Assembly (NCBI GenBank): GCA_021797775.1
Contig: JAJZZC010000005.1
Coordinates: 5,719 to 69,718, forward strand
DNA: 64,000 bases
Reading direction: 5' to 3'
From: Bacillota bacterium
GTDB taxonomy: Bacteria; Bacillota; Sulfobacillia; RBS10-35; JAJYVN01
In this document: in pieces, positions 16,117 through 33,313 of the stretch
How the letters are laid out: each line of letters opens with the position of its first letter
How positions within the stretch are numbered: position 1 is the first letter of the stretch
Made by a program: the position numbers and the translations under genes
The notes under the pieces: model-generated
What the model saw: the letters and a program-made list of their open reading frames with translations, nothing else
Told to the model about the DNA's origin: nothing
The model's database searches: none

Positions 16117-16191
16117 GGCGACGTAGCCAAGTGGTAAGGCAAGGGTCTGCAAAACCCTTATGCGGCGGTTCGAATCCGCCCGTCGCCTCCA
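16117..16191 (+). tRNA. tRNA-Cys (anticodon GCA), CCA encoded; integration target
   Basis: Acceptor GGCGACG/CGTCGCC, anticodon loop CTGCAAA, T arm GGCGGTTCGAATCCGCC. Its 3' 49 nt are duplicated at 28536-28587. Confidence 0.9.
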
Positions 16192-16194
16192 GAG
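16143..16194. repeat. att-type direct repeat, left copy (inside intact tRNA-Cys)
   Basis: The 52 bp GGGTCTGCAAAACCCTTATGCGGCGGTTCGAATCCGCCCGTCGCCTCCAGAG is identical to 28536-28587 (checked base by base). Confidence 0.9.
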
Positions 16195-16206
16195 AGACAA
16201 GAGAAG

Positions 16207-16245
16207 CCCCTTGGGCGAGAAGGCCCAGGGGGTTTCTTCCTTTCT
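16207..16245 (+). terminator. Rho-independent terminator after tRNA-Cys (element-borne side)
   Basis: Stem CCCCTTGGGC / GCCCAGGGG (one bulge), loop GAGAAG, followed by TTTCTTCCTTTCT. Confidence 0.6.
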
Positions 16246-16386
16246 GTCCCAGTCTGCCGGAGTCGGCTGTTTTCGGGCTGATTCTGGCAGGGTTGGGCTA
16301 CAATCCGGCTACATCGGCGGCTACCGGGCGAGGGCGGCGGGAGCGCACGGCCGTTGGCGTGGCGGGCGGTGGGCGAGGGCGGCCGG

Positions 16387-17490
16387 CTACGTGGCGCGCT
16401 TCCGCCCCGGGCGCCCTGGGGTGTACGTGGCGGCCCAGGCGGCGAAGTCGGGCGTCTCCCGGCCGGCCGTGGCATCCCGGAGGCGCTGTCTCTCGTAGGC
16501 GGCGCGCTTGCGGTCGTCGCCTGCGGCGGTGCCAACGGCGGGCGCGTGCTCCCAACAGTACCCCTGCCGCTTGTCAACCGCGATGAAGGCGCGGCGGCAC
16601 GCACCGCAGAAGCCGAGGCGCGCACCTAGCCTCATGGCTTCCAGGAGGTCCAGCCAGCACGCCGCGTAAATGCTGTCTGTAGCGAAGAACTCGCCAGCGG
16701 TCCAGAACCCCGCGAGAGTGGACGGGCGCCCGCTGTCCGCATTCCGCAGGCGCCGCGCGCGGGTGGCCGGCGGAAAGTCGCCACGGCCGGCGAGTGCAGG
16801 CCTGTACCTAACCTGGTCCATCTGGACCCTCATGCACCACGGGTCGAAAAGCATCGCCCGACGGTCCACCGGCTGCATGGCCGCGAAGTTGCCCCTGGTC
16901 ATCCCCGCGTCGCGCACATTATCCAATGCAATGTTGACCAGGCCCTGCGCATAGGGCGGGTCGCCCATGCCCACGTGGAACGGGTCGGGCGCGAGGCACA
17001 GCCATGCCATCGCGGCTAAGTCCAGGAGAGTGACTGCCATCGCGGGCCTAGTGGGGCCCGGCGCACCGGGGGCGGCGCCGAAGTCCCGCCGAAAGGCGTG
17101 CGCGTAGAGGTCGGCGGCGCTGCTGCCGGCGCCGAGCGAGGCCATGGACTCCCGAACCTCGGCTTCGGTCGGTCCGTTGGAATCGTCGTCGGGTTCGAAG
17201 AGCGCGGCCGGCGGCGGGAACGGCGCGCCCCAGGCGCGGTGCCAGGCGGTCACCGCGGCGGGCGCGGGGTCGGCAAGGGCGTCCAGCAGGCCGTCGAGCA
17301 GGGCCGCGTGCGGCTCTTCGCGCTCCGTGTCGAGGTCCGCCACCACATACGACGCCCCGCGCCGTATGTCCCATCTGTAGAGAGACGGTGCGGCGCCGCG
17401 CCACACGATGAGGAAGCAACCATCCCCTACCCGCATCCAGGCGTAGCGACCGAACATGGTCCACCCCAATTGTCCACCCTGGAAGAACAT
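16387..17490 (-). CDS. Orphan island cargo protein (368 aa) with C-terminal Cys/His cluster
   Basis: The first in-frame start not overlapping the Xis/XRE genes is ATG 17490 (MFFQGGQLGW...). The C-terminus has CGACRRAFIAVDKRQGYCWEH. No family recognised. Opposite strand to the rest of the island and adjacent to the left att repeat. Confidence 0.55.
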   Translation of the reverse strand: MFFQGGQLGWTMFGRYAWMRVGDGCFLIVWRGAAPSLYRWDIRRGASYVVADLDTEREEPHAALLDGLLDALADPAPAAVTAWHRAWGAPFPPPAALFEPDDDSNGPTEAEVRESMASLGAGSSAADLYAHAFRRDFGAAPGAPGPTRPAMAVTLLDLAAMAWLCLAPDPFHVGMGDPPYAQGLVNIALDNVRDAGMTRGNFAAMQPVDRRAMLFDPWCMRVQMDQVRYRPALAGRGDFPPATRARRLRNADSGRPSTLAGFWTAGEFFATDSIYAACWLDLLEAMRLGARLGFCGACRRAFIAVDKRQGYCWEHAPAVGTAAGDDRKRAAYERQRLRDATAGRETPDFAAWAATYTPGRPGRKRAT

Positions 17491-17531
17491 GGGCCGCGAC
17501 CGACGCCATGAGCACCAAGGGCCGGCGCCGG

Positions 17532-17566
17532 CATTGTCCGTCTTTTTGCCGTGAGCCCGGACAATG
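17532..17566. promoter_or_regulatory. Perfect 9-bp inverted repeat in the divergent control region (operator or 5'-UTR hairpin)
   Basis: CATTGTCCG-17 nt-CGGACAATG lies between the start of the 16387-17490 gene and the Xis-like gene, in the only locally AT-richer stretch (GATAGCACGTTTTCTATTCT). Confidence 0.4.
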
Positions 17567-17630
17567 ATAGCACGTTTTCTATTCTGGACGCACGGCGCCG
17601 ATGCGACGCGCCGCAGGGAGGGGGCGCCCG

Positions 17631-17822
17631 ATGGATGACGACGCGTTGCTGACCAGGACCGAAGCCCTGCGCTTGCTGCGGGTTGGCAAAGATTGGCTCT
17701 ACACAGACGAGGGCAAGACCCTGCCCATGGTTCGCGTGGGCCGCCGGCTGCTGATCCGCCGTGGCGCGCTGACCGCCTGGGTTCGTGCCCACGAGGCGCC
17801 GAGGGCGGGGCGGGCGGGTTGA
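17631..17822 (+). CDS. Excisionase/AlpA-type helix-turn-helix DNA-binding protein
   Basis: MDDDALLTRTEALRLLRVGKDWLYT...LPMVRVGRRLLIRRGALTAWV fits the HTH_17 (Xis/MerR-like) pattern. Confidence 0.65.
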   Translation: MDDDALLTRTEALRLLRVGKDWLYTDEGKTLPMVRVGRRLLIRRGALTAWVRAHEAPRAGRAG

Positions 17823-17887
17823 CACAAAACGAAGGCCGCCCCCAGGCGGCCCCCGCGAACGCTGCTGCTGGCCACGATTCTACCACG

Positions 17888-18124
17888 CTAGCCGGGCTTT
17901 GGGGGTCCGTCGTCGAGGAGAAGATGCTCCATCGCGACCCCGAGGGCCGCAGCCAGTGCGGCAACGGTCGATACGTTGGGGTCGCGGCGGCGTCCTTCCT
18001 CAATGCCCCACACGGCCGTTTGGCTGATGCCGGCGCGCTTCGCGAGGGCGTTCTGGCTAAGCCCGCGCGCTTCGCGGAGGCGGCGCACGTTGCGGGCGAG
18101 GACCCCAGGGCCGTCCGCGTCCAC
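17888..18124 (-). CDS. XRE-family (Cro/CI-type) HTH transcriptional regulator
   Basis: LARNVRRLREARGLSQNALAKRAGISQTAVWGIEEGRRRDPNVSTVAALAAALGV is a canonical HTH_3 domain. Divergent from the replication genes. Confidence 0.85.
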   Translation of the reverse strand: MDADGPGVLARNVRRLREARGLSQNALAKRAGISQTAVWGIEEGRRRDPNVSTVAALAAALGVAMEHLLLDDGPPKPG

Positions 18125-18138
18125 GGCGCCACCCCCGC

Positions 18139-18167
18139 TTGCTATCCTACGCCAAACGCAGTAGCAT
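18139..18167 (+). promoter_or_regulatory. Candidate sigma-70-like promoter for the island replication operon
   Basis: TTGCTA-17 nt-TAGCAT in the 80-bp XRE/DUF3987 divergent spacer, about 38 nt upstream of ATG 18205 (RBS AAGGGGGG). Confidence 0.35.
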
Positions 18168-18204
18168 CGCTACATACGGCGTTCGCCGTAAGGGGGGCGG
18201 TGCG

Positions 18205-19563
18205 ATGAGCCAGCTAAGAGACCGCATGGCCGGCGACGACTTGGCGGCCCGCCGCGCCGCCCGTGCCGAGGAGACCGGGGGCGCCGAGGAGGTCGCGGCC
18301 GAGGTTTGGCCCGACGCGGTAGACGGCGCCGCCTACCATGGTGTCATCGGCGACCTGGTACGGTGCGTGGCCCCGCACACCGAGGCTGACGCGCACGCCC
18401 TGCTGGTGCAGGCCCTGGTGGCTGCTGGGTCTGCCGTTGGCCGCGCGGCGCACGTCATGGCCGACGGCGCGCGTCACGGCTGCAATCTCTACGCCGGGAT
18501 CGTGGGCACCACGTCCAAGGGGCGCAAAGGCACATCGTGGGCGCGCGTCCGGGCGCCGCTGTGCGCGGCGGACGAATCGTGGGGCGAGCGCATCTCCTCC
18601 GGGCTGTCGAGCGGCGAGGGGCTGATTTGGGCCGTCCGTGACAAGATTGTTAAGCAAGAACCAGTGAAACAAAACGGCCGCGTGGTCGGGTATGACACCG
18701 TAGAGGTGGACCCAGGCATTCCGGACAAGCGCCTGCTGGTGGTCGAATCTGAGCTATCTGGTACGTTGCGTACCATGGCGCGCGACGGAAACTCCCTGTC
18801 GTCCATCATTCGCGATGCCTTCGACCATGGCGACCTGCGGACCCTGACCAAGAACTCCCCCGCCGTGGCGACCGGGGCGCATATCTCCATCATCGGGCAC
18901 ACGACGAAGGACGAACTCCTGCACTACCTGGGCGATACGGAGGCCGCGAATGGCTTCGCGAATCGCTTCCTGTGGGTCTGCGCCAGGCGGTCCAAGGTCC
19001 TGCCGTACGGCGGAAACATATCGGCAGAGGACTTCGCGCCCATCGTCGCGCGGCTGACGCAGGCCCTGCATTATGCCCGCGACGTAGGGGAGATCACACA
19101 CGCCCCGGAGACGCAGGCCCTATGGCGCGCCGTCTATCCCAATCTCAGCGACGGCCGCCCTGGGTTGCTGGGATGCGTTACGAATCGCGCGGAGGCCCTG
19201 GTGCTCAGGCTGTCTGCTATCTATGCCGTGTTGGACTGTACGGACATCGTGAGCCCAGAACATTTGCGCGCGGCGCTGGCTGTTTGGGATTATTGCATGG
19301 CATCGGCACGGTTCGTCTTCGGCGAAACCCTGGGCGACCCGGTGGCGGATGAACTGTTCCGCGCGCTGGAGGCGGCGGGGGAGAAGGGCATGACGCGCAC
19401 CGAGGCGCGGGAGCTATTCCAGCGCAACCAACCAAGCGCCCGCATCGCGGCCGCCCTGGGCGCCCTGTCGGCGGTGGGCAAGGCCGCGTGCCGCATGGAG
19501 CCGCCTTCCAGCGGCAGGGGGCGCAATACGGAGCGGTGGTTCGCTACGCGTTTTACGCGGTAA
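18205..19563 (+). CDS. DUF3987 (YfjI-like) island/phage replication-associated protein
   Basis: HGCNLYAGIVGTTSKGRKGTSW and LLVVESELSGTLRTMARDGNSLSSIIRDAFDHGDL match my recollection of DUF3987 conserved blocks. Sits beside the primase/helicase genes. Confidence 0.65.
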   Translation: MSQLRDRMAGDDLAARRAARAEETGGAEEVAAEVWPDAVDGAAYHGVIGDLVRCVAPHTEADAHALLVQALVAAGSAVGRAAHVMADGARHGCNLYAGIVGTTSKGRKGTSWARVRAPLCAADESWGERISSGLSSGEGLIWAVRDKIVKQEPVKQNGRVVGYDTVEVDPGIPDKRLLVVESELSGTLRTMARDGNSLSSIIRDAFDHGDLRTLTKNSPAVATGAHISIIGHTTKDELLHYLGDTEAANGFANRFLWVCARRSKVLPYGGNISAEDFAPIVARLTQALHYARDVGEITHAPETQALWRAVYPNLSDGRPGLLGCVTNRAEALVLRLSAIYAVLDCTDIVSPEHLRAALAVWDYCMASARFVFGETLGDPVADELFRALEAAGEKGMTRTEARELFQRNQPSARIAAALGALSAVGKAACRMEPPSSGRGRNTERWFATRFTR

Positions 19564-19734
19564 ACGCGGTTGGTTCTGTCCCAAGGCGTTGCGGGCGCGG
19601 AGGGGGTACGCGGTTTGTACGCGGTTTCTGGACCCGGACCCTCGCGCGGGCGAACCGCGTAGAAACCGCGTAGGCGCCGCGCGACGGGAACTCGTAGAGC
19701 CCCAAGGAACCGCGTAAAGGGCGTCAACCGCGTA
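19554..19734. repeat. Iteron array: 4 direct TACGCGGTT-type repeats facing 4 inverted AACCGCGTA repeats (putative island ori)
   Basis: Forward copies at 19554, 19563, 19607 and 19618; inverted copies at 19653, 19663, 19708 and 19726. Symmetric about ~19640. Lies between the DUF3987 gene and the primase module. Confidence 0.7.
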
Positions 19735-19767
19735 ACCGAGACGGGCGCGCAGAGGGGGTCGGACGAC

Positions 19768-20004
19768 GTGACTTTCCTTGAAATGGCAGACAGGGCCCTT
19801 GAGAAGGCGGGCGCCGAGGCCGTGGCCGCCGCGATTGTGGAGGCCGTCAACGCCGGCCGCGACACGTCCGAGGCCGCGGCCCCGCTGGCGACCATGAGTC
19901 GCGAGGGGCGGCTGCGGGTGTTCCGCCTGCTGCAGGAGGCCATGCCCGAGCGGACGGGGCGCGCGCGCGTCTCCCCTACGGGGGGCGTTGCCCGTGCGCG
20001 CTGA
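19768..20004 (+). CDS. Small hypothetical island protein
   Basis: ORF on the island strand directly after the iterons. No family recognised and the start is uncertain. Confidence 0.35.
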   Translation: MTFLEMADRALEKAGAEAVAAAIVEAVNAGRDTSEAAAPLATMSREGRLRVFRLLQEAMPERTGRARVSPTGGVARAR

Positions 20005-20263
20005 CGTGGCTGCCTGGCTAGACGCGCGCTGCGTCCGGTCGCCCCGCGCGTGGGGAGAGGCCGACCGGCTGCACACGGACTTCACTGCCTGCGGCGGCCG
20101 GCTGGAGCGCGAAGCCATGCTGGCCGAACTGACCACACATGGTCGCGCATGGCTCGGGCCGGCCGGCCTGGTGTGCGGCGTGGGGCTGCTGCAGGACTGG
20201 CCGGCCGAGGTCGATGCGGCCCGCCAGGCCCGGGGCACGGGGCGTGGTCACCGTGGCGGGTAG
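19988..20263 (+). CDS. Small hypothetical island protein
   Basis: VAAWLDARCVRSPRAWGEADRLHTDFTACGG... resembles short regions seen near phage/plasmid primases. Overlaps its neighbours by a few codons. Confidence 0.4.
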   Translation: MPVRADVAAWLDARCVRSPRAWGEADRLHTDFTACGGRLEREAMLAELTTHGRAWLGPAGLVCGVGLLQDWPAEVDAARQARGTGRGHRGG

Positions 20264-21284
20264 CCCGTGCCTTCGTGCGGCCCTGGCGTACTTGCGGCGC
20301 GGCTGGTCCGTTGTCCCCTGCGGGTCGGCCAAGCGCCCCCTGCTGCCCTGGGCGCCCTACCAGGCCCACCGCGCCACGGAGGCCGAGGTCCGCCAATGGT
20401 GGACCCGCTGGCCGCAGGCGGCGGTTGCGATAGTCACAGGTGTCGTGTCCGGCATCGTGGTCGTGGACCTGGACCGTGGCCATGCGGACGGCGCGGACGG
20501 GCTGGCGTCCATCCGCGCTGCGGGACTCGACCTGCCGGCGACCCGCTGCGTGCGGACACCGAGCGGCGGCACCCATGCCTACTATCTGCATCCCGGGCGG
20601 ACGGTGCCGAACGCGGCGCGGCTGCGCGGTCTGGCCGGCGTAGACATGCGCGGAGACGGCGGCTACGCGCTGGCGCCACCCTCGCGGACGGCGGATGGCG
20701 GCTACGCGGCGGTGCCGGAGACCCGCGACCTGCCGATAGCGCCCCTGCCGGCGTGGGTCCTGGAGGGCCGCGACCATGGTGGTGCCCCTGCCCGGACGGC
20801 CGACGAGTGGGCGCCCGTGTGGACTGACCCCTGCCCCGAGGGCCGGCGCAACGCCACCTGCGCCCGCCTGGCTGGCCACCTGGCCGCCCACGGCATCGGC
20901 CAGATGGAGGCCGAGGCGCTGCTGCTGCGGTGGGCGGCCGACCGCTGCGACCCGCCGATGGCCCCGGCCGAGGTGTCACGCACCGTGGCGAGCATTTACC
21001 GCGCCCACGGGCGGCACGTGGAGCCCCTGCCCGACCCGGCGCCCATGCCCGAGGCCGAGCAGGTGTGGGACGCCATGGAGCCCCGCCTGCGGGCGCGTCT
21101 GGCGAGCCGCGATGGCCGCGTGCGGGCCGGCGGCCTGGCGGACGCGCTGCGGACGGGAATGGCGCCCGAGGTGGCCCATGCCATTGCCCTTGACCTGTCA
21201 GACGGCGATGCGGAGGAAGCGGGCCGCGCCCTGCGCTGGGCGATGCGCGCGGCCAGGGAGGAGCGTGGGCGCCATGCCGGCTGA
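20244..21284 (+). CDS. Bifunctional DNA primase/polymerase (Prim-Pol) with PriCT-type C-terminal domain
   Basis: LRRGWSVVPC, the IVVVDLD metal motif, TPSGGTHAYY and GDGGYALAPPS. Then RNATCARLAGHLAAHGIGQMEAEALLLRWAADRCDPPM (PriCT-like). GTG start is approximate. Confidence 0.85.
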   Translation: MVTVAGSPCLRAALAYLRRGWSVVPCGSAKRPLLPWAPYQAHRATEAEVRQWWTRWPQAAVAIVTGVVSGIVVVDLDRGHADGADGLASIRAAGLDLPATRCVRTPSGGTHAYYLHPGRTVPNAARLRGLAGVDMRGDGGYALAPPSRTADGGYAAVPETRDLPIAPLPAWVLEGRDHGGAPARTADEWAPVWTDPCPEGRRNATCARLAGHLAAHGIGQMEAEALLLRWAADRCDPPMAPAEVSRTVASIYRAHGRHVEPLPDPAPMPEAEQVWDAMEPRLRARLASRDGRVRAGGLADALRTGMAPEVAHAIALDLSDGDAEEAGRALRWAMRAAREERGRHAG

Positions 21285-22944
21285 CGCTCGCCAAGCCCTG
21301 CGACCCTACCAGGAGGAGGCCCGCGCTGCGGTGGCGTCCCGCATCGCGGCGGGGAGGCGCGCGCTGCTGACCGTGCTCCCCACGGGCACCGGGAAGACCG
21401 TGCTGTTCGCCGCAGAGGTCGTAGATCGCACGCGGGACGGCGGCCGAGCCCTGGTGCTCGCCCACCGCGACGAGTTGATCCGCCAACCCACCGAGGCCCT
21501 GCGGCGCGCGGCCCCCGGGCTGGAAGTCGGCACGGTCAAAGCTGAGCGCAACGAGGTCGGCTGCCGCGTGGTCGTGGCGTCGGTGCCGACCTTGGCCCGC
21601 CCGGAGCGGCTGGACGCCCTGCGGGCCGCCGGCCCCCTGGCCCTGGTCATCACGGACGAAGCCCACCATGCGGTGGCCCCCATGTACGGCCGCATCTATG
21701 CCGCCCTGGCGGCCGGCAAGACCGGCGGCCCGCTGCACCTGGGGTACACCGCGACCCCGCAGCGCGGCGACGGCGCGGGCCTGTCCGACGTGTTCGAGGA
21801 GGTCGCGTTCTCCCGCGACATCCGCCAGATGGTGACGGAAGGGTGGCTGACGGAGCCCCGTGGTCGCATCGTGGCGGCGGGGCTCGCCCTGGACGGCGTG
21901 CGGCGCAACGATTCCGGCGACTACTCGGATACGGGACTGGACGAGGCCATGGGCGCGCCCGCCGTGGAGGCCATCGCCCAAGCCTGGTGGCGGCACGCCC
22001 GGGACCGCGTAACCGTTGCGTTCACCCCATCGGTGCGAACCGCGCAGGCCCTGGCTGATGCCGCGAACCGCGTTGCCGGCGCGCCCGTGGCGGCCGAGGT
22101 GGACGGCGGGACGGACCCGGGCGCGCGCCGCGCGCTGCTGGCCAGCTTCAAGGCCGGCGACGTGCGGCTGCTGGCGAACTGCGGCGTGCTGACCGAGGGA
22201 TTCGACGCGCCGAACATCACCTGCGTTCTGGTGGCCCGTCCCACGCGGTCTGAAGGGCTCTACACGCAGATGGTGGGACGCGGGCTGCGTCTCTGGCCGG
22301 GTAAGACCGATTGCCTAGTGCTGGACGTGACGGGCGAGAGCGCCCACTTTTCGCTCTGCGTTCTGCCCACGCTGTTCGGCCTGCCGGCGCGCGACCTGGC
22401 GGGCCGGTCGGTGTCGGAGGCCATGGAGGAGGCGGCGGCGGAAGCGCGGCGCGGTGGTCTGCACTTGGCGCGCATGGAGGCGGACGTTGGCCTGCTGCAG
22501 AGGCGGTGCCGCTGGGCATGGGTGGAGGTTGAGGCGGGTCGTCTCTACTCGGTGGACCTGGGGCGGGACGCGGCTGGCCTGGCCGTGATGGCCGTTGTCC
22601 GCGCCCTGTACCGTGGCCGCGCAGGACCGTGGACCGCAGAAGTGCGGCGCATCCGCGACGGCAGGACGGAGGCCGCAGAGGTCCTCTGGCAGGGCGAGGG
22701 CGACCGCGCGGCCGAGGACGCCTTCGGCGCGGCGGAGACATGGCTGGCCACGCAACCGGCGGCGGCCCGTCTGGCGAGCGCGGAGCGCGGCTGGCGGTCG
22801 GCGACCGGCGCGGCCCCGGCGACGGCGGCGCAGATCGACGCCCTGCGGAAGTGGCGAATCGTCGCTCCGGACGGCTGCACCAAGGCCCATGCCAGTGACC
22901 TGCTGGCGCGCGCCATCGCGGCGGTGCGGCTGCGGGGTGCGTGA
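21274..22944 (+). CDS. SF2 DEAD/DEAH-box helicase (ResIII-type) with ~170-aa C-terminal extension
   Basis: LRPYQEEA, LPTGTGKT (motif I), VITDEAHH (II), GYTATP (III), QMVGRGLR (VI). ATG 21274 overlaps the primase stop. Confidence 0.85.
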   Translation: MPADARQALRPYQEEARAAVASRIAAGRRALLTVLPTGTGKTVLFAAEVVDRTRDGGRALVLAHRDELIRQPTEALRRAAPGLEVGTVKAERNEVGCRVVVASVPTLARPERLDALRAAGPLALVITDEAHHAVAPMYGRIYAALAAGKTGGPLHLGYTATPQRGDGAGLSDVFEEVAFSRDIRQMVTEGWLTEPRGRIVAAGLALDGVRRNDSGDYSDTGLDEAMGAPAVEAIAQAWWRHARDRVTVAFTPSVRTAQALADAANRVAGAPVAAEVDGGTDPGARRALLASFKAGDVRLLANCGVLTEGFDAPNITCVLVARPTRSEGLYTQMVGRGLRLWPGKTDCLVLDVTGESAHFSLCVLPTLFGLPARDLAGRSVSEAMEEAAAEARRGGLHLARMEADVGLLQRRCRWAWVEVEAGRLYSVDLGRDAAGLAVMAVVRALYRGRAGPWTAEVRRIRDGRTEAAEVLWQGEGDRAAEDAFGAAETWLATQPAAARLASAERGWRSATGAAPATAAQIDALRKWRIVAPDGCTKAHASDLLARAIAAVRLRGA

Positions 22945-23007
22945 CGCCGGCCCATCGCCGGTTGCGCACGGCGCAACCTATTGCGTCCAATACAGGAGGT
23001 GTTGAGG

Positions 23008-23211
23008 ATGGCGAGCACCCAGCCGAGGCCCAGTTTCACCGGAGGGCGTGCCCCGTGCCCCGGCTGCGGCAGGCCCACGGCCCCGTACGTCCGGCTGGCC
23101 GGCGAGTCGCGTTTCCTCTGTCGGTCCTGCGGCCGTGCGTGGCAGAGGTGGGCCACGCCGAGCGGCAAGAAGCCGGCGCGGCGCGGCGGCCGGCGGCGCC
23201 GCAAGGGCTGA
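23008..23211 (+). CDS. Small zinc-ribbon protein with basic tail
   Basis: CPGC...17 aa...CRSC, followed by KKPARRGGRRRRKG. ATG 23008 is preceded by AGGAGG. Confidence 0.5.
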   Translation: MASTQPRPSFTGGRAPCPGCGRPTAPYVRLAGESRFLCRSCGRAWQRWATPSGKKPARRGGRRRRKG

Positions 23212-23627
23212 ATTCCGATGCGAAGGGCCGCCCCAAGGAGGGAACTTGTGTGGACCCCACCCGTTCCATGCCTGCGGCCGTGATCCTGCCCCCGCTGCCC
23301 CCGGTGGCGCTCCCGGCGGACGCCTGCACGGCCCGCCCGTGTGGACGCGCAACACAGTTTGTGGCACAGAAGGGCCGCCGTGCGTGAATAGCGCATCGTC
23401 AAGTGCGGCTGAGGCCGTGGGCGCCATGGTCTGGCGGGGTGTTGACGAAGGCCGCAAACGACGCCGCAAACGTCACAGGGGCACCACAGGAGCCGCGCTG
23501 CGCCGTTTGCGAGAGGCCGGCCCCACGAACCGCGCCCGTGGCCGCTAACACTTAGAGCGGCGCCACAGGGCGGCGTTTGCGAGCACCACAGACCCCCTGC
23601 TGTACGATCGGCGCGGAGGTGGTCCCC

Positions 23628-24269
23628 ATGCCCGTCCGGCGCAAGCGGCGGCGCACCGCAGATGCTGCCTATGCGGAAGAACACCCCACGCTGGCGGCCA
23701 GGCTGACCCCCGAGGAGGCCGAGGCCGTGCGGGCGGCCGGCGGCGCGGCGGCCGTGCTCCGTGCCCACCTGGCCGGCGGGTGCGTGACCCGCGCGCAGGC
23801 CGAGGCCCTGGCGACGAAGGCGGCGGACGCGGCCCGGCTGGCGGCCGAGGAGGAGGCGGTCGGCGAGGCCGACGCCCTCCTGGATAAGGTGATGGCGTGG
23901 GAGTCATGGGGAAAGCAGGCGCGGGTGGCACTCGGCGCGGCGCAGGCGCAGGTTGCTGCGCTGACGCGCGAGGTGGATGCCGCGCGGGCGGCAGGCTACC
24001 AGGCGGGCGCGGCAGACGCGGCGGCGGCGATCAGGGCCGAGGCCGGCCGCAGGCGCGATGCCTTCGCGGAGCAGGCGGCGGCGGCACTGGTGGCGGCCGA
24101 TCCCGCGGCCGTTGACTGGCTGGCGGTGGCGCGGGTGGCACGGGAGCGCGGCGCGGGCGGCGCCCTTCTGGCTGCCCTGCCGGCCGCGCCCCGCGCCAGG
24201 CTGCACGGCGCCCTGCTGGCCGACGCCGGAGCCCAGGCGGGAGGTGGCGGCCGTGGGCGACGCGCTTGA
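23628..24269 (+). CDS. Ala-rich hypothetical island protein (predicted helical)
   Basis: ORF on the island strand with a basic N-terminus (MPVRRKRRRT). No family recognised. Confidence 0.4.
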   Translation: MPVRRKRRRTADAAYAEEHPTLAARLTPEEAEAVRAAGGAAAVLRAHLAGGCVTRAQAEALATKAADAARLAAEEEAVGEADALLDKVMAWESWGKQARVALGAAQAQVAALTREVDAARAAGYQAGAADAAAAIRAEAGRRRDAFAEQAAAALVAADPAAVDWLAVARVARERGAGGALLAALPAAPRARLHGALLADAGAQAGGGGRGRRA

Positions 24270-24609
24270 CCGCGCCATCGCGCGCCACGCGGCCCTGCTG
24301 GCCGACCTGCCTCCCGCCGCGCCCCCGCCCGTCGCTCCCGCGCCCATGCCCGCGACCGACCGAGGCATCGTGGCGGCGGCGCAGGAAGGTCGGCGGCTGG
24401 GCCTGGCCCTGGCGCCGATCATCGCAGAGCGGCGTGCCGAGGAGGCCGCCGACCGCCAGGCGGCTTCTGCCCTGCTGGCTCGTTGGCTGGGCGCGGCGGG
24501 CGCGACCCCTGCCCCGCCGAATCCCCTAGCGGACGCGGCGCATCGGACGGCGGCTGCCGTTGTCCCGCGCTTGGCGCGGAACCTGGTCGGGCGGTTGCTG
24601 CGGCTGTAG
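24253..24609 (+). CDS. Hypothetical island protein
   Basis: GTG 24253 lies 8 nt after GGAGGT and overlaps the previous stop. No family recognised. Confidence 0.35.
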   Translation: MGDALDRAIARHAALLADLPPAAPPPVAPAPMPATDRGIVAAAQEGRRLGLALAPIIAERRAEEAADRQAASALLARWLGAAGATPAPPNPLADAAHRTAAAVVPRLARNLVGRLLRL

Positions 24610-24969
24610 GCATCAGGGCGACTAGTTACCCCGACCACACAACACGACCCCGCAACATGGCAATTCCTGGGAAAATACCCCCTAGACTCTTCCAGGAGTC
24701 TTATGCCTGGCAAAAACACACCTGGCCATTCTGCCACCCGGCCGAACCCCTTGTGCGAGTAGGGCTTGCCGCATCATGGGCCCCCACGATGCGCCGTGTG
24801 GGTGGGGTGTTCGCGCCGGGCCCGGACGGGGCCGGGCGTGCCTTCTTCTCCTACTGCGACAACGCCCTTACCGAGTCAGAGACGAAACACGTCAACCCGG
24901 CTTGACGTGATGCCGTACACACGTTATGCTTCGGTTGTCGCGGCGATGCGGCGCAGGGGGTGCGGGACG

Positions 24970-25659
24970 ATGGCGAAGCGCGGCGGGGCGACGAAGGGCG
25001 CGGCCGGGGGTCGGACGCGGGCGGCTGGGGAGTGCTCCTTCTGCGGGCGGGCCCTGGAGGAGTGCTCCTGCGGCGCGCGGCGGGACGGCACCGGCAAGGC
25101 GTACGACGCGCGCTACCGCCAGGAGGCCCGTGCGGCCGGCGTGGCCCTGGAGGCGGAGCAGGCGGCCACGGTCGCCCACGTCGCCCTGCACTGTGGCCAG
25201 GGGGCGGCCCTGGTGGCGGCGCGTCTCCTGCGGGATGGGCACGCGGAGCGCGACGTGCTCGCCGTCGCGGCGACCATGGCGGCCGGCGCCAGGCCGGCGC
25301 CCGAGCCCCGCCAGGCGCCGCGTGCGGCGGCCCTGCCGACCCGTGCGGCGCGCCGGGATGCGGCCCGGACGCCCTGGACGGCGCGCATCGCGGCCCTGTG
25401 GACCATGGTCGCGGCCCTGGTGCTGTGCGCGGCGGACGATGGCTGGACGATGCTCCTGGGGTACGGCGGCGCGGTGCTCCTCCCCGCCCTGGCGGCCCTG
25501 GCGGTGCGGCGGGATGCGGTGGCGGTTGCGGTGCGGGCGCAGGTGGGCGGTACGGGGCGGCACGGGCGGGTGGCGGCGCGGTCGGTGTACACCGCGCCGG
25601 CCCTGGCCCTGGCCGGGTGGGCGGCGGCGGTTGGGCTGTGGGTTCTCTCGGTGCGGTAG
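24970..25659 (+). CDS. Hypothetical island membrane protein with N-terminal Cys motif
   Basis: CSFCGRALEECSCG near the N-terminus, and two or three C-terminal hydrophobic helices (IAALWTMVAALVLCAA, GGAVLLPALAALAV, ALALAGWAAAVGLWVL). Confidence 0.45.
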   Translation: MAKRGGATKGAAGGRTRAAGECSFCGRALEECSCGARRDGTGKAYDARYRQEARAAGVALEAEQAATVAHVALHCGQGAALVAARLLRDGHAERDVLAVAATMAAGARPAPEPRQAPRAAALPTRAARRDAARTPWTARIAALWTMVAALVLCAADDGWTMLLGYGGAVLLPALAALAVRRDAVAVAVRAQVGGTGRHGRVAARSVYTAPALALAGWAAAVGLWVLSVR

Positions 25660-25692
25660 GCGGGCGCGCGTGGGTCTGATGAACGGCAGGGG

Positions 25693-25962
25693 GTGTGTGG
25701 GATGGCGACGGTGCAGGCGCGGCGGGTGGACCTGTTCGGCGAGGTTGAGCCCCTGACGAAGGCCCAGGCGGAAGCGGAGGCTGTGGCCCACATGACCCGT
25801 TACCGCCAAGCGGTGCAGGAAGCGGTGGCGGCGGGGCGCGGGATCGATGCGGCGCACGGTGAGGCCCTGCCCTGGCTGCAACGGGCGCGGTCGGCCCTTC
25901 GGCGCGAAGGGTGGGCGGAAAGCGCGGTGCGGGCCCTGGTGGCGCGCGAGTGGCACGGGTAG
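25693..25962 (+). CDS. Small hypothetical island protein
   Basis: ORF on the island strand with non-repetitive composition. No family recognised. Confidence 0.4.
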   Translation: MCGMATVQARRVDLFGEVEPLTKAQAEAEAVAHMTRYRQAVQEAVAAGRGIDAAHGEALPWLQRARSALRREGWAESAVRALVAREWHG

Positions 25963-26030
25963 CGCAGGTGCGGCAGGGGGCGGGCGGGCGTCCGCCCCGC
26001 CTTGCCGCTAATGCGGTATAACGTATTAGC

Positions 26031-26471
26031 GTGGGGGTGGTCAGGTTGGCGCGGGCGATGGCGCGGGGTGGGGACGAGAAGGGCCGCGCACGCATGGAGC
26101 TCGTCTTGCCGGCGGCGCTGAAGGCCCGGCTAGCGCGCGAAGCGTTCGAGCGTGGGCGGCCGGCGGCGGGAATCGTTGAGGAAGCGCTGGCGGGGCGGCT
26201 GCCACCGGCCCCGGGCGCGACACCGGAGGAGCGCGCGGCTCTGTGGGTGGCAGCCCTGGCCGGCCACGTGGAGTGCTTCCCACAAGTGGGGCGGTTTGGG
26301 GTGGCGGACGGCGCCGGGCGCGCTGCGGTGGCGGCGGCCGATCCGCAGGCGCGGGCGGCGGCCCTGGCGGCCCTGGCGGCCCTGCGCGCTGCGGTGGATG
26401 GCGCGACGGCCGCCCTGGGCGGTGCGCAGCTTACGGCGGACAGGCCCAAGCGCGGCCGGGCCGCCCCTTGA
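26031..26471 (+). CDS. Ribbon-helix-helix (CopG/Arc-like) protein, tentative
   Basis: MELVLPAALKARLAREAFERGRPAAGIVEEAL fits a beta-strand/helix/helix RHH pattern. The start is uncertain (internal ATGs at about 26058 and 26094). Confidence 0.5.
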   Translation: MGVVRLARAMARGGDEKGRARMELVLPAALKARLAREAFERGRPAAGIVEEALAGRLPPAPGATPEERAALWVAALAGHVECFPQVGRFGVADGAGRAAVAAADPQARAAALAALAALRAAVDGATAALGGAQLTADRPKRGRAAP

Positions 26472-26515
26472 CAAGGGACCGCGTAGGAATTGTCTTGTCA
26501 AGTGCCTTGTCAAGG
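26465..26515. promoter_or_regulatory. Three copies of the palindrome CTTG(A/T)CAAG (operator / arm-site / iteron candidates)
   Basis: CCCTTGACAAGGG (26465-26477), CTTGTCAAG (26494-26502) and CCTTGTCAAGG (26505-26515), overlapping and following the RHH gene stop. Confidence 0.5.
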
Positions 26516-27040
26516 GGGTGTTGAACCAGGCTTGTCCACTAGGGGTTGCGGGGAGCCCTGGCGGCCGTTGACGATGGTCACCATGCCGGCGGCGGGCGGT
26601 TCGGCGGGGAGGTGGTCCTTCCGAGCCCGCCGCAGGGCCGGTTCCACGCCAGGGCCGCCTAGCGCGGCCACAGGCGCACGCTGGCCACGAGGGCGGCTCA
26701 TTGGGCACCTGGCGGCCCTATCGCGTGCCTACGGGCACCCTGCGTGGGGGGGCGATCCTGGCGGGTGGCGAGCGCGGCGCGCGGCAAGGGCCGCCCCCGG
26801 TCGGAGCGGCCCCTGTCGGCGATTCTACACACAATACGCGCGGGGCTACCGGCGCGCGGCGGGCGGCGCTGGCTGACCCGGATATTGAGCCGGCCGACCG
26901 CGCGGACGCCGAGCGCCACCTGCGGGAGGCCGAGCGCCGGGCGGCGGCCCCGGGTTGGGTCGTCGGCACGGACGGCGTGCTGATCCTGCCGGGGGCCGCC
27001 CCGCTGCTGGGGCCCGTCGTGCTGAACGATCCCCCCGGGG

Positions 27041-27232
27041 GTGGCGCCCGTGAGTGAGCCCAGGCCCACGGAGCCCCTGGACCGCACTGAGGCCGCGCTG
27101 CGCCGGGTGCGCGACCAGACCCGTGCCCTGGAGGTGGACCTGGACAAGCTGGCGGCCGTGTGGGTGGGCGGGCTGCAGGGGCTGGTGCGGGAGGCCCGCG
27201 CGGCGCGGCGGGCGATGGAGGAGGGGCGGTAG
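27041..27232 (+). CDS. Small coiled-coil protein immediately upstream of int (possible directionality factor)
   Basis: 63 aa, charged and helical (RALEVDLDKLAAVWVGGLQGLVREARAARRAMEE). Ends 4 nt before the integrase GTG. Confidence 0.4.
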   Translation: MAPVSEPRPTEPLDRTEAALRRVRDQTRALEVDLDKLAAVWVGGLQGLVREARAARRAMEEGR

Positions 27233-27235
27233 CGG

Positions 27236-28408
27236 GTGTACCTGCGCCAGCGTGGCGAGAAGAACGGCAAGCCCGTCTGGTCGCTCCGGTTCGAGAAGCC
27301 GGACCCCGGGACCGGCAAGCGTGCCTACGTCTACGAGACGTTCCACGGCAGCAAGCGCGAGGCCGAACGCCGATGGATCGTGCGGGAAGCGGAGATCAAG
27401 AGGGCTGGCGCCGGCTATGCGGCACCGTCCAAGCAGACGCTCGCGGCCTATCTGCGCGCGTGGCTGCGGGACCAGGAGCCAAACTGGAAGAGAACCACGC
27501 TCGCCAGTTACCGGACGCACGTAGAACTGCACATCATCCCCGCCCTGGGCGCCGTCCCCCTGTCGGGTTTGACCCCGCCGCAGGTGGCCGCGTGGCAGGC
27601 GGACATGCTGCGGAAACCGGGCCGGCGGGGCAACGCCCTCTCGCCGAAGCGCGTCCTGAATGCGTACCGGGCGCTGCACACGGCTATGGAGGAGGCCGTA
27701 CGACTAGAACTCATCCCGTCGAACCCCGTGGGGAAGGTGAGACCCCCACGCCAGGCGCCCGAAGAGGTCGTTGCGCTGGACGCTGACCAGGTGAGCGCCC
27801 TCATGGCTACGGTGGCCGGGCACCGGCTAGAGGCCATGTTCGCCGCGGCGTGGCAGACAGGGTTGCGCATGGGCGAGCTACTTGGGCTGCGATGGGAGGA
27901 CGTGGACCTGGGCGGCGCGACGCTGCGAGTTGCCCAGGGGGTGGCAAGCACAGGCGGCCCAGCATTCGTCCAGGCCCCGAAAAGCAAGCTGTCGGCGCGG
28001 ACCATCGCGCTGCCGGCGGCCGTGACCGCAGCCCTGCAGGCGCGCCGCGAGCGGCAGACAGAGGAGCGGCAGAAGGCGGGCGGGCGGTGGCGCGACCACG
28101 GGTTGGTGTTCCCCACGTCCAGGGGTACGCCCGTCCTGCCGTCCAGCATGGAGCGCACCTGGTACACGGTGCGGGACCGGGCCGGGCTGCCCGCCTATGG
28201 CTTCCATTGCCTCCGTCACACCTACGCGAGTATGGCGCTGTCTGCCGGCGTGCCGCTGGAACTGGTGTCGGAGAACCTGGGGCACGCCGGCCCGGGCTTT
28301 ACCAAGCGCGTCTACGCGAAGTACCTGCTGGACGCGAAGCGGGCGGGCGCGGACATCATGGACGAAGTGGCGCGACGGATGAAGGCCGCGGGCGCGGTCG
28401 ATGAGTGA
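27236..28408 (+). CDS. int: Tyrosine-type site-specific recombinase (phage integrase)
   Basis: N-terminal SAM-like/core-binding region. Catalytic blocks LQTGLRMGELLGLRWEDV, FHCLRHTYASMAL and LGHAGPGFTKRVYAKY (R..HxxR..Y). Lies 128 bp from the right att repeat. Confidence 0.9.
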   Translation: MYLRQRGEKNGKPVWSLRFEKPDPGTGKRAYVYETFHGSKREAERRWIVREAEIKRAGAGYAAPSKQTLAAYLRAWLRDQEPNWKRTTLASYRTHVELHIIPALGAVPLSGLTPPQVAAWQADMLRKPGRRGNALSPKRVLNAYRALHTAMEEAVRLELIPSNPVGKVRPPRQAPEEVVALDADQVSALMATVAGHRLEAMFAAAWQTGLRMGELLGLRWEDVDLGGATLRVAQGVASTGGPAFVQAPKSKLSARTIALPAAVTAALQARRERQTEERQKAGGRWRDHGLVFPTSRGTPVLPSSMERTWYTVRDRAGLPAYGFHCLRHTYASMALSAGVPLELVSENLGHAGPGFTKRVYAKYLLDAKRAGADIMDEVARRMKAAGAVDE

Positions 28409-28535
28409 TGCGGCCACGTTCGTCGGCGGTCGGCACGGATGGCCCGCGAAACCACTCCGGCTACAAACCGGCTACATTTGGGGTCGTCGCGGCCAAGAAG
28501 CCGCGTAACGACGCGCTTTTTTGGCCGCAGTGGTT

Positions 28536-28587
28536 GGGTCTGCAAAACCCTTATGCGGCGGTTCGAATCCGCCCGTCGCCTCCAGAG
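28536..28587. repeat. att-type direct repeat, right copy (partial tRNA-Cys 3' end)
   Basis: Identical 52 bp to 16143-16194. There is no 5' half of a tRNA upstream of it. Confidence 0.9.
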
Positions 28588-28594
28588 GCAGCAG

Positions 28595-28634
28595 GGCCCT
28601 GGTCTACAGCGCGTAGGCCGGGGCCTTTCTTTAT
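28595..28634 (+). terminator. Hairpin plus T-tract after the displaced tRNA-Cys 3' fragment
   Basis: GGCCCTGG-15 nt-CCGGGGCC (one G-U pair), followed by TTTCTTTAT. Confidence 0.45.
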
Positions 28635-29261: not shown

Positions 29262-29338
29262 GGGCGGTTAGCTCAGTCGGCTAGAGCGCGTGATTGACGT
29301 TCACGAGGTCAGTGGTTCAAGTCCACTACCGCCCACCA
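29262..29338 (+). tRNA. tRNA-Val (anticodon GAC), CCA encoded
   Basis: Acceptor GGGCGGT/ACCGCCC, D arm GCTCAGTCGGCTAGAGC, anticodon loop TTGACGT, T arm CAGTGGTTCAAGTCCACTA. A CCCGCC-GAAA-GGCGGG hairpin follows. Confidence 0.9.
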
Positions 29339-31255: not shown

Positions 31256-32191
31256 TCAGCCCGTGAGCCCCGCATGGGCCATGGTCTTGATGACACGGCT
31301 CTGGGTCGCCAGGAAGACGATCATGGGTGGGAGCGCCATGACCATCGCCGCGGCCGCCTGCGCACCGGCCATGGCGACACCCGTCTGCCCTGGAACACCG
31401 GCCGCTCCAAGCGTGGCGAACGCCACCGGCAGCGTCTTCAACGAGTCGGTGTGGATGTACAGCTGGGGGGTGACGGCATCATTCCACACCATGTTGAACG
31501 TCAGGAGCACCAACGTCGCCCACGCCGGTTGGGTCGCCGGGTAGATGATCGATTTCAGGATCTGCCACTCGCTGGCGCCGTCGACTCGCGCCGCCTCGAG
31601 GATGTCCGCCGGGATGGAATCGATATACTGCTTCATCAGGAACAAGCCGAAACTGGAAACAACCACCGGCAGGATCAATGCCCAGTAGGTGTTGATCAGG
31701 CCGAGGCCCTGGATGACGAGATAGCGCGGGATCGTGGTCGCCGGACCGGAGTACATGAGGGAGGCGATGATCAAGAACCACATGATGCCATGGCCGGGCA
31801 TGCTCTTGTGCTTGGAAAGCGGATAGGCCGCCACGGTCGAGATGACCACCACCCCGGCCACCACGGAGACAGCGACGAGCAGGCTGTTGAAGAGGTAGCG
31901 GGCAAAGGGCACGGACAGCCCGGACAAGGCCAGGATCAACTGGCTGAAGTTCTCGGTTGTCAGCTGGTACGGGATGATAATCGGCGGGAAGTGGAATAGC
32001 TCGGAATAGGTCATAAAGGCATGACCGAAGAGCACCACGAACGGCAGCGCCATGAAGATCGCAAAAACCACCAGCATGAAGGTTCCGAACAAGGACAACT
32101 CATCGGTCTTAATCTTACCGTGGCGGCGGATTCGCTGCACGGCGGCCGGGCCCGCGCTCCTGGAGGCCGACACTGATGCGCTGGCCAACAC
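31256..32191 (-). CDS. Carbohydrate ABC transporter permease (MalG/LplC-like)
   Basis: EAA-loop block ILEAARVDGASEWQILKSIIYP and six TM helices. GTG 32191 lies 5 nt after GGAGG. Confidence 0.9.
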   Translation of the reverse strand: MLASASVSASRSAGPAAVQRIRRHGKIKTDELSLFGTFMLVVFAIFMALPFVVLFGHAFMTYSELFHFPPIIIPYQLTTENFSQLILALSGLSVPFARYLFNSLLVAVSVVAGVVVISTVAAYPLSKHKSMPGHGIMWFLIIASLMYSGPATTIPRYLVIQGLGLINTYWALILPVVVSSFGLFLMKQYIDSIPADILEAARVDGASEWQILKSIIYPATQPAWATLVLLTFNMVWNDAVTPQLYIHTDSLKTLPVAFATLGAAGVPGQTGVAMAGAQAAAAMVMALPPMIVFLATQSRVIKTMAHAGLTG

Positions 32192-32245
32192 GCTTCCCTC
32201 CTTCAGCCTATACAGCCGTCGCTGCCGGCTGATTGCGTGGGGCGC

Positions 32246-33201
32246 CTAATCCGAAGAAGCCAACCACTTGTATACCGTCATGCCCATGCCGTACGACCAA
32301 GCGAACATGAGCAGGGCGATTGCTGCGGCGTATCCCATCATAAAGCGTGTCGTCGCATAGTCGTTGGCGTAGTCATTGATCGAAAGCGCGGCATAGTCCG
32401 GACTGTTGATGCCGCCCGCGAGGCCGAGCAACCCACTGCCACCGAAGCTGTTGACCACCGCGAAGATCGAGTTGATCAGGAGAAACGGCTTCATCTGGGG
32501 CATGGTGATATACCACAACTCTTGCCATGCGTTCGAGGTGCCGTCGATGCGCGCCGCCTCATAAAGGTCAGGCTTCACAGTCTGCAGCCCGGCGATGAAG
32601 ATGAGAAAGCCGGTTCCCATGCTCATCCAGAGCGTGATGCCAATGAGCACCGGCATGATCAGCTTGGGGTTTGCCAGCCAGGCGATGGGGGCGTGGATGA
32701 AGCCCATTTTGTAGAGCGTGTAGTTGATCAGGCCGTATTGGTCTGTGGAGAAGAAGTACCCTGAAATCAGCCCGACGGTGATGCTGCTCTGCAGGGAGGG
32801 TGCGTAGAGCGCGAGCGTCAGCGGTACGCGCCACGTCAGGCGTACGCGGTTTATAACCCAGGCGAAGAAGAAGGCGAGGAGCAGCCCGACGGGACCAGTC
32901 GCCAGACCGTAGATGAGCGTATTGCGCACCGCGATGATAAACACGTTGTCGTACAGGAACAGGGTGCGAAAGTTCGTCAGGCCGATCCACGTCGGCGGCT
33001 GCAGGATGTCGTAGTAGGTTAGGCTGATGGCGAGGGCAGCCAGAACCGGAAGAATCGTGAACAGGAAAAAGCCGACGAGGAACGGCGAGAGCATGATATA
33101 GGATGCGCGGAATTGCCAAACCTTGCGCAACCAGCGTTGCAAACCAGGGCCGGTACCACTCCGTCGGACAACCCCGGAAACAACCTCGGCCTCTGCCTGC
33201 A
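32246..33201 (-). CDS. Sugar ABC transporter permease (MalF/LplB-like)
   Basis: LYEAARIDGTSNAWQELWYITMPQMKP. ATG 33201 is preceded by AAAGGGGGGA; the longer track ORF start at 33298 is less likely. Confidence 0.9.
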
Positions 33202-33313
33202 TCCGGCGTCCCCCCTTTGACCGCAACGACCGCCACGCATCTGCGAGTTGCGTCTTGTCGCGCCGCGCGGGGGACGGGCACACCGCCCATCCCCCCACGA
33301 CAGCTGGGCGGCG

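Follow-up and report, generated by a model that had tools for sequence, protein, structure and literature searches.

An integrative island in a tRNA-Cys gene with a helicase-primase replication module and no recognizable virion or transfer genes

Insertion of the island in tRNA-Cys

The window analyzed here is a 64-kb stretch (64,000 nt, to which all coordinates refer unless stated) of contig JAJZZC010000005.1 from the Bacillota bacterium assembly GCA_021797775.1. It carries a 12.4-kb island bracketed by a direct repeat of the 3' part of a tRNA-Cys gene (repeat finder), which is very probably a genuine and recently functional integrative element that replicates after excision. Overall, we favor with moderate confidence an apparently intact element of the satellite-like int - AlpA/HTH_17 - DUF3987 kind, both integrative and replicative, which would leave the cell by functions acting in trans. 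Read this way, the island adds one more case to a class of hitch-hiking elements that is already known, and it involves no new mechanism. Because the high GC content of the window (70%) leaves open reading frames (ORFs) abundant in all frames, genes were called by GC content at third codon positions (GC3) and compared with independent gene calls on identical public contigs.

The two 52-nt copies of the repeat are 100% identical, as a preliminary description made from the letters of this DNA had claimed, and run from the anticodon stem of tRNA-Cys to 3 nt beyond its CCA end. The left junction has the complete tRNA gene and the right junction only its 3' fragment. The sole other member of the repeat family is the neighboring tRNA-Phe (73%).

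16117-16191 (+): complete tRNA-Cys(gca) gene, its 3' part from attL (ARAGORN; Rfam tRNA, 71 bits)
16143-16194 (+): attL core, 52-nt direct repeat
16201-16238 (+): terminator-like hairpin after tRNA-Cys, within the island, with a 16-bp stem and a T-rich tail
28536-28587 (+): attR core, partial tRNA-Cys copy
28593-28627 (+): terminator-like hairpin after attR

Each repeat copy is followed by a hairpin and a T-tract, in agreement with the terminator first described on each att side, and the two hairpins differ in sequence; the one at 28593-28627 is presumably the original tRNA-Cys terminator. Beyond the 52-nt identity, the right junction (28523-28535, aligned with 16129-16142) still resembles a tRNA D-loop (GCCAAGTGGTAAGGCAA against GCCGCAGTGGTTG), which suggests that the tRNA-like segment of attP reaches beyond the core in degenerate form. 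The insertion site lies in a row of tRNA genes, tRNA-Val(tac), tRNA-Phe and tRNA-Cys(gca), with a further tRNA-Val(gac) at 29262 (ARAGORN). Rfam confirmed all four and found no other known RNA between 15 and 30 kb. The base composition is host-like, as described earlier, with a GC content of 0.730 in the island, 0.727 in the left flank and 0.677 in the right flank.

In related genomes, whose flanking genes are ~78-80% identical at the nucleotide level, the locus reads tRNA-Phe, tRNA-Cys, ~1.8 kb, tRNA-Val(gac) and DeoR, and the corresponding interval here is 13.1 kb. The 12.4-kb block is absent from these genomes, as is any second copy of the tRNA-Cys 3' end, and the ~1.8-kb stretch encodes a HEPN and nucleotidyltransferase pair (HEPN/MNT). 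Absence of the island from the homologous locus supports its acquisition, as judged from these alignments. Taken together, the tRNA 3' repeat, the integrase-bearing block and its absence from related genomes place the island in the general class of tRNA-integrating tyrosine-recombinase islands. At the same locus, tRNA-Val(gac) (29262-29338) is 100% identical to its counterparts in three related genomes (L007, L011 and L012), with its orientation relative to the DeoR gene reversed. The reversed tRNA-Val and the HEPN/nucleotidyltransferase pair in the island's place make the region downstream of tRNA-Cys look like a recombination hotspot.

Integrase, putative arm-type sites and a circularly permuted relative

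The integrase gene lies at the right end of the island, and its translation has all the catalytic residues (R, K, HxxR, H and Y). The window has exactly two copies of a 19-mer (GGCTACAANCCGGCTACAT) made of two GGCTACA units in tandem, at 16296 and 28459 (0 expected from shuffles). The copies share one orientation and lie within the island, 101 nt in from the left core and 58 nt in from the right core. After excision the pair would flank the core, which fits the layout of integrase arm-type sites.

16296-16314 (+): putative integrase arm-type site of the P' arm, GGCTACAATCCGGCTACAT, with a further CGGCTAC at 16318; layout mirrored in the related contig L004
28459-28477 (+): putative integrase arm-type site of the P arm, GGCTACAAACCGGCTACAT
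27041-27232 (+): 63-aa ORF directly upstream of int, GC3 0.95
27236-28408 (+): tyrosine integrase (Pfam Phage_integrase PF00589, 7e-21, 75.2 bits; SAM_3; phrog_1, 2e-65)

The closest relative, L004, is a 9.2-kb metagenomic contig that has the order of the integrated island in circular permutation. In it, the 3' end of int is followed by a hairpin, two copies of TGTGACCA, a tRNA 3' fragment, two more copies of TGTGACCA and homologues of the left-end genes of the island. The contig has these four copies of TGTGACCA only, against 0.15 expected, and neither ARAGORN nor Rfam found a complete tRNA in it. The simplest reading is that L004 would represent an assembled excised circle in the attP arrangement. 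Public contigs (Logan and MEGAHIT) that end inside the att cores were considered as evidence of excision and rejected. They end exactly k-1 bases into the repeat, as happens at any repeat in a de Bruijn graph, and reflect an assembly effect rather than excision.

Replication module and proposed iteron origin

The gene list and module order of the preliminary description were confirmed by Pfam, PHROGs and GC3 frames, and its recombination, regulation and replication modules proved intact, with their catalytic motifs kept. The replication module combines a DUF3987 helicase, a primase-polymerase (Prim-Pol, also written PrimPol, fused to PriCT_1) and a superfamily 2 (SF2) helicase.

18205-19563 (+): DUF3987 helicase, Walker A motif KGRKGTS, Walker B motif DKRLLVVESE (Pfam PF13148, 1.6e-12, 47.7 bits)
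19545-19734 (no strand): iteron origin, TACGCGGTT, five forward and four reverse copies, in an 82-nt imperfect inverted repeat
19768-20004 (+): 78-aa ORF, 78% identical to its L004 counterpart
19988-20263 (+): 91-aa ORF, 68-69% identical to its L004 counterpart
20214-21284 (+): Prim-Pol + PriCT_1 primase-polymerase (Pfam 3e-37 for PF09250 and 3e-12)
21274-22944 (+): SF2 helicase, ResIII + Helicase_C, with motifs PTGTGKT, DEAH, TATP and QMVGRGLR (ResIII 6e-22; phrog_16, 1e-74)

The start of the DUF3987 gene at 18205 is preceded by a good Shine-Dalgarno sequence, and the Walker A (KGRKGT) and Walker B (DKRLL..E.E) motifs are invariant across a 20-member DUF3987 alignment; a DUF5906 domain was not seen in the protein. 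PrimPol retains the DxD, H and D motifs (alignment invariants D85, D87, H121, D144 and D148). The SF2 helicase is ~42-43% identical to actinophage DNA helicases and has a C-terminal extension of ~200 aa that matches no family. The island has the features of replicative mobile elements built on PrimPol and DUF3987, namely motifs I-III of the archaeo-eukaryotic primases (AEP), a nearby DUF3987 helicase with Walker A and B motifs, and an integrase. A 2025 study found 5'-3' helicase activity for a PriCT-DUF3987 protein, which also binds the neighboring PrimPol (PMC11724360). The same study proposed that the DUF3987-PrimPol pair replicates an element that is integrated in a tRNA gene and encodes an integrase (PMC11724360).

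The iterons that had been noticed after the DUF3987 gene are nine copies of TACGCGGTT (six perfect and three with one mismatch) in a ~200-bp non-coding gap; only one further perfect copy occurs elsewhere in the 64 kb. The origin of SaPIs (Staphylococcus aureus pathogenicity islands), in their pri-rep-ori layout, also lies directly after the replication gene. In the related element L013, the gap between the DUF3987 and PrimPol genes holds at least 11 copies of a different 9-mer, ACATGCTCA, in both orientations. Such a combination of kept position and changed sequence would be expected if each element had its own origin. Not all relatives share the feature; L004 lacks the helicase-primase gap. 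L013 has two more local repeat clusters, at 43-139 and 6516-6614 of its own sequence, with five copies of AGTGGCCCA and four to five of CCTGTATAC.

Left-end genes and regulators

The left end carries a 367-aa gene, a protein of the AlpA/excisionase type (HTH_17) and an XRE repressor, the last divergent from the replication operon and with HTH_17 upstream.

16387-17490 (-): 367-aa protein with a C-terminal CxxC...C..H zinc-ribbon-like motif, no family
17533-17566 (no strand): 9-bp inverted repeat CATTGTCCG/CGGACAATG between the divergent 367-aa and HTH_17 genes, read from the sequence
17601-17822 (+): HTH_17 (AlpA/excisionase-type) protein, 63-73 aa, the start at 17631 (63 aa) being likelier
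17888-18124 (-): XRE/Cro-CI-type repressor (HTH_31, 4e-15; HTH_3, 7e-15; many PHROG repressor families)

The HTH_17 assignment (PF12728) barely passes, at 27.3 bits against a cut-off of 27; the protein also matches the excisionase/regulator family phrog_66, and TIGR01764 is below its cut-off. The inverted repeat at 17533-17566 is a possible operator. Some public gene calls include a 94-aa plus-strand ORF (17924-18208) that overlaps the DUF3987 start by 4 nt. The XRE gene on the opposite strand matches Pfam strongly, which makes this antisense call probably spurious.

The 367-aa gene had been labeled orphan cargo, a description that we do not uphold. Its product matched nothing in Pfam, PHROG, PADLOC or NCBIfam, nor any PDB entry by sequence, and a word-indexed homologue search returned only the protein itself. 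Exhaustive phmmer searching of 1.84 billion representatives found three distant homologues; the alignment of the family was too diverged to seed a scan. A homologue holds the same position, divergent from HTH_17, in the related elements L004 and L181, so the gene is not random cargo and is better described, on this positional evidence, as a lineage-specific element gene. Family members have in common a C-terminal W-L...C-x-x-C-x-R-x-F...C pattern with a less conserved His nearby, followed by a basic helix. The position and the zinc-ribbon-like motif suggest that the protein may be a regulator. AlphaFold2 models reached a predicted local distance difference test (pLDDT) score of 38 from the single sequence and 59 from a 4-sequence alignment, and Foldseek searches with the model against PDB and BFVD gave nothing below E = 0.01.

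Small ORFs of the right half

About nine small ORFs without a family lie between the SF2 helicase and the integrase.

22981-23211 (+): 76-aa zinc-ribbon-like ORF (CPGC...CRSC), weak Zn-ribbon matches only, 47% homologue in L013
23577-24269 (+): 230-aa Ala-rich orphan ORF (213 aa by gene callers), GC3 frame, no family
24253-24609 (+): 118-aa orphan ORF, called in contig L235, no family
24610-24969 (no strand): internal intergenic region of 360 bp, lower GC, promoter-like site at 24902-24930
24970-25659 (+): 229-aa orphan, three predicted transmembrane segments, CxxC duplicated at the N-terminus, no family
25693-25962 (+): 89-aa orphan ORF, no family
26031-26471 (+): 146-aa protein with a weak ribbon-helix-helix (RHH) N-terminus (RHH_5, 19.5 bits against a cut-off of 26; Arc-like PHROG, E = 0.05)
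26464-26517 (no strand): palindrome pair CCCCTTGACAAGGG / CCTTGTCAAGGGG adjoining the RHH ORF
26701-27057 (+): 118-aa orphan ORF found by gene callers, no family

The palindrome pair is a possible operator for the RHH protein or a possible terminator. Within the 229-aa ORF, a 30-nt tandem repeat (25016-25080; 2.2 copies, 80% matches) duplicates the Cys-x-x-Cys. The intergenic region contains an assembly-graph branch at 24738|24739, where contigs L235 and L239 end at 24738. Two others start upstream of the branch, L001 at 24598 (141-nt overlap, the MEGAHIT k) and L002 at 24709 (30-nt overlap, the Logan k-1). The branch may be a population variant or a module boundary.

Searches for virion, transfer and defense genes

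The claim that the island has no virion or transfer genes held in four hidden Markov model libraries (Pfam, PHROGs, PADLOC and NCBIfam) and in tblastn. The libraries detected no capsid, portal, terminase, tail or lysis genes in the called ORFs, no FtsK/SpoIIIE (PF01580), TraB, relaxase or coupling-protein domains and no known defense domains. In these libraries, searches for hidden capsid or packaging genes came back empty, and no ORF matched a PHROG of the head, packaging or connector classes at E < 0.01. A six-frame scan for P-loops found no motif beyond those of the DUF3987 and SF2 helicases. The concatenated orphan ORFs had no tblastn match among 50,697 phage records, and blastn found none for the small-ORF region in phages or for the whole island in plasmids.

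Relatives and distribution of the core genes

Protein identity between L004 and the island is uneven. It is highest for the DUF3987 protein (67%), the 78-aa ORF (78%) and the 91-aa ORF (69%), and much lower for PrimPol (39%), the helicase (30%), Int (37%) and the 367-aa protein (27%). At the DNA level, the small-ORF pair (19768-20263, against 4938-5433 in L004) is 83% identical. Conservation of the small ORFs next to far more diverged PrimPol, helicase and integrase genes indicates that the element is mosaic and that DUF3987 and the small-ORF block move as a unit.

The DUF3987 protein had 5,816 matches at E <= 1e-5, the best 120 of which are 53-67% identical over nearly the full length. In many of the close homologues, the protein is joined to a Prim-Pol, PriCT, Toprim, DnaB-N or zinc-finger primase domain. 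The clade gave 4 weak matches in reference phages, 1 in reference plasmids and 53 contigs in IMG/VR. Some of these contigs are real phages with large terminase or tail genes (L218 and L197, which has both), and others are small int-bearing contigs. A recurrent context in long contigs is Int, HTH_17, a small ORF and DUF3987, and in L179 an int - HTH_17 - DUF3987 core lies directly beside tRNA-Asn. The clade is very large in metagenomes and almost absent from reference phage and plasmid collections, which suggests that many such elements are uncatalogued.

A profile search of genome contigs with the PrimPol alignment returned distant PrimPols only (<=49% identity), and alignments of the 78-aa and 91-aa ORFs found nothing in JGI metagenome contigs. 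Four genome contigs (L015-L018; e.g., GCA_035519555.1) encode a 261-aa Prim-Pol/PriCT protein 47% identical to that of the island. Its neighbors are genes for universal stress, HSP20 and hydrogenase maturation, no integrase lies close by and, from this context, the protein appears to be domesticated or stranded.

Comparison with known mobile elements

The preliminary description had framed the island as a satellite or an integrative plasmid-like element. The framing stands insofar as the island contains three genes of the model for phage-inducible chromosomal minimalist islands, or PICMIs; satellite status is not decidable from the sequence. The PICMI detection model calls for four components: an integrase, AlpA in the form of PF05930 or PF12728, a primase with DUF3987, and fis (PMC10803314). 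As implemented in SatelliteFinder, the integrase is PF00589, PF00239 or PF07508 and the primase is PF13148 with or without DUF5906. The island has three of these four components (int, AlpA/HTH_17, which passes only just, and DUF3987) and is not integrated next to fis; its att site is the 3' part of tRNA-Cys, and its neighbors are tRNA genes. PICMIs carry no capsid-remodeling genes and travel in helper phage particles (PMC10803314). The island resembles them in having no capsid-remodeling or packaging genes, flanking direct repeats and small orphan ORFs. However, PICMIs have about six genes, integrate next to fis, were described in marine Vibrionaceae and have experimentally demonstrated helper phages, whereas the island has no known helper, is twice as large at 12.4 kb and encodes further proteins, namely a separate Prim-Pol/PriCT, an XRE repressor and an SF2 helicase.

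Phage-inducible chromosomal islands (PICIs, including SaPIs) and P4-like satellites are of similar size and arrange their modules likewise, with int, two divergent regulators, a replication module whose iteron origin directly follows the replication gene, and small ORFs. Unlike PICIs, capsid-forming PICIs (cf-PICIs) and P4, the island has no detectable terS, cpm, sid, ppi, psu/delta or capsid genes, that is, none of the packaging genes of these groups. Its integrase is also at the end opposite the regulatory region, unlike in these satellites.

Closer in replication genes is the AgaPP/AgaPH element of Bacteroidota (PMC11724360), which is tRNA-integrated and encodes an integrase and an AEP primase-polymerase with a nearby DUF3987 5'-3' helicase. 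No transfer genes were reported for that element (PMC11724360). In AgaPP/AgaPH, PriCT is fused to DUF3987, the PrimPol is BT4734-like and the cargo comprises a long-B Argonaute and defense genes, whereas in the island PriCT is fused to PrimPol, the helicase gene comes first and there is no recognizable defense gene. Tycheposons of Prochlorococcus (bioRxiv 10.1101/2020.12.28.424599) are likened to the island here by gene content, with a tRNA-targeting tyrosine recombinase, xis, primase/helicase and no dedicated transfer genes; they differ in being elements of marine cyanobacteria, in often having cargo for nutrient acquisition and in being defined by particular integrase clades. The absence of packaging or transfer genes is normal for PICMIs, tycheposons and AgaPP/AgaPH, which makes the same finding in the island less surprising.

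Integrative and conjugative elements of actinomycetes (AICEs) such as pSAM2, SLP1 and pMEA300 (PMC2440964, PMC3218068) are likewise 10-17 kb, integrate in tRNA genes of high-GC hosts, encode int/xis, replicate autonomously (some with Prim-Pol) and have small, poorly conserved ORFs. The island has both the integrase (PF00589) and the Rep (PF09250) of the AICE scheme. An FtsK/SpoIIIE-domain Tra is one of three core AICE detection modules (PMC3218068) and is needed in that scheme; the island has none. Nor does it have the terminase, portal, major capsid, tail or lysis genes of a temperate prophage. Scans for the relaxase domain of an integrative and mobilizable element (IME) found none, and the palindrome pair beside the sub-threshold RHH protein may or may not be an origin of transfer. 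The island acts like a minimalist satellite or a replicative integrative island and should not be filed under one named family.

Proposed life cycle and alternative explanations

In the life cycle that we propose, we infer the binding of proteins to sites, inducibility, episomal replication and the transfer route. The integrase would have recombined attP, a 52-nt tRNA-like core between the tandem GGCTACA arm sites, with the 3' part of tRNA-Cys. This would have regenerated the tRNA gene, and the element would have brought a replacement terminator. In the resting state, the XRE repressor would silence the divergent rightward operon. Upon induction, Int would excise the 12.4-kb circle, aided by the HTH_17 protein and/or the product of the 63-aa ORF upstream of int. 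The DUF3987 helicase could be loaded at the iteron inverted repeat just downstream of its own gene, Prim-Pol/PriCT would prime and extend DNA with the phage-type SF2 helicase in an accessory role, and the element would amplify as an episome. Because there are no virion, conjugation or relaxase genes, exit must rely on functions supplied in trans. Packaging by a helper phage, as for PICMIs and PICIs, is the most likely route, which we propose tentatively by analogy; vesicles, transformation or mobilization would be the other options.

Several observations weigh against this account. Neither an excision junction nor an empty site of the exact element was observed. The empty-site comparison suggested in the preliminary description established the absence of the island from related genomes and gave no clean attB, as unrelated DNA (~1.8 kb) follows tRNA-Cys in these ~78-80% identical sequences. 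L004 could be a tandem or composite arrangement instead of a circle. For the island, the analysis identified neither a helper phage nor a pac or cos site, and neither terS nor a gene that would redirect capsids; the 64-kb window contains no prophage. The element-specific small ORFs were not found in IMG/VR contigs, which were scanned with the 78-aa alignment. The DUF3987 clade also occurs in bona fide phages, so the core genes alone do not indicate a satellite. Finally, the nine function-less ORFs could conceal an unrecognized transfer system.

Such a system is central to the alternative that the island is an AICE- or IME-type integrative plasmid moving by conjugation, either with unrecognized translocase or spread ORFs (e.g., the 229-aa membrane protein) or mobilized in trans by a conjugative element in the same cell. 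In the latter variant, the RHH protein and the palindromes at 26464-26517 would serve as an accessory factor and an origin of transfer (oriT). The AICE blueprint comprises Int, an Xis-like protein, a Prim-Pol replication module, insertion in a tRNA gene and a length of 10-17 kb (PMC3218068). The spread proteins of AICEs are membrane proteins of small size and poor conservation, and the island has an orphan with three transmembrane segments as well as a weak RHH protein beside the palindrome pair. Yet no FtsK/SpoIIIE (PF01580), relaxase or coupling protein was found in the called ORFs and no extra P-loop in six frames, the RHH match is under the Pfam threshold and the host is not known as an actinomycete; we consider conjugative transfer unlikely. 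Rather improbable, too, is a tycheposon-like shuttle with no transfer genes of its own that spreads passively in vesicles or by natural transformation after excision and amplification. The hallmark set (a tyrosine recombinase at a tRNA, xis and primase/helicase) is common to both, and tycheposons are enriched in vesicles and phage particles (bioRxiv 10.1101/2020.12.28.424599). A 2026 paper reports that phage satellites of Streptococcus thermophilus are mobilized by natural competence (PMC13376191). The island, however, has no ecologically obvious cargo.

A temperate-prophage remnant from which an internal deletion removed the late genes for structure and lysis, leaving those for integration, immunity and replication in an element that is no longer mobile, would explain the XRE/HTH regulators, the phrog_1 integrase and the phrog_16 SF2 helicase (~43% to actinophage), all typical of prophage early regions. 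DUF3987-clade helicases do occur in IMG/VR contigs with large terminase and tail genes, and the branch at 24738|24739 could mark a structural variant. Decay is nonetheless hard to reconcile with att copies identical over 52 nt, intact arm motifs, core catalytic motifs that are all kept, tight gene packing and the lack of pseudogene debris. L004 and L013 are equally gene-poor, L004 closes on itself through attP and shows no space for a late region, and the orphan ORFs match no phage record. These features make a remnant very unlikely. Lower still is the chance that the island, L004, L013 and L181 form an undescribed lineage, neither satellite nor conjugative, whose own genes encode a new helper-sensing switch or a self-encoded exit; the 367-aa zinc-ribbon protein, the 78/91-aa pair by the origin and the Cys-rich protein with three transmembrane segments could be its lineage-specific genes.

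If the favored reading of a replicative, satellite-like element is correct, the int - AlpA/HTH_17 - DUF3987 minimal hitch-hiker would reach beyond marine Vibrionaceae and other cultured hosts. The same design would then also occur in a lineage of 70% GC that is uncultured, where it is combined with a phage-type SF2 helicase and a split PrimPol. Its parts are compact and testable: the 52-nt att core, the paired arm sites, the iteron origin and the helicase-primase pair. Points of modest interest are that helicase, origin and primase form a split layout in which the iterons keep their position, that comparison with a relative gives evidence for attP, and that the DUF3987 clade is so large in metagenomes.

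Neighboring genes

The remainder of the 64-kb window consists of housekeeping genes. Downstream of the island, a region of lower GC (31256-36904; 0.59-0.64) holds a sugar ATP-binding cassette (ABC) transporter operon with an unusually long solute-binding protein (1,196 aa) and is conserved in related genomes.

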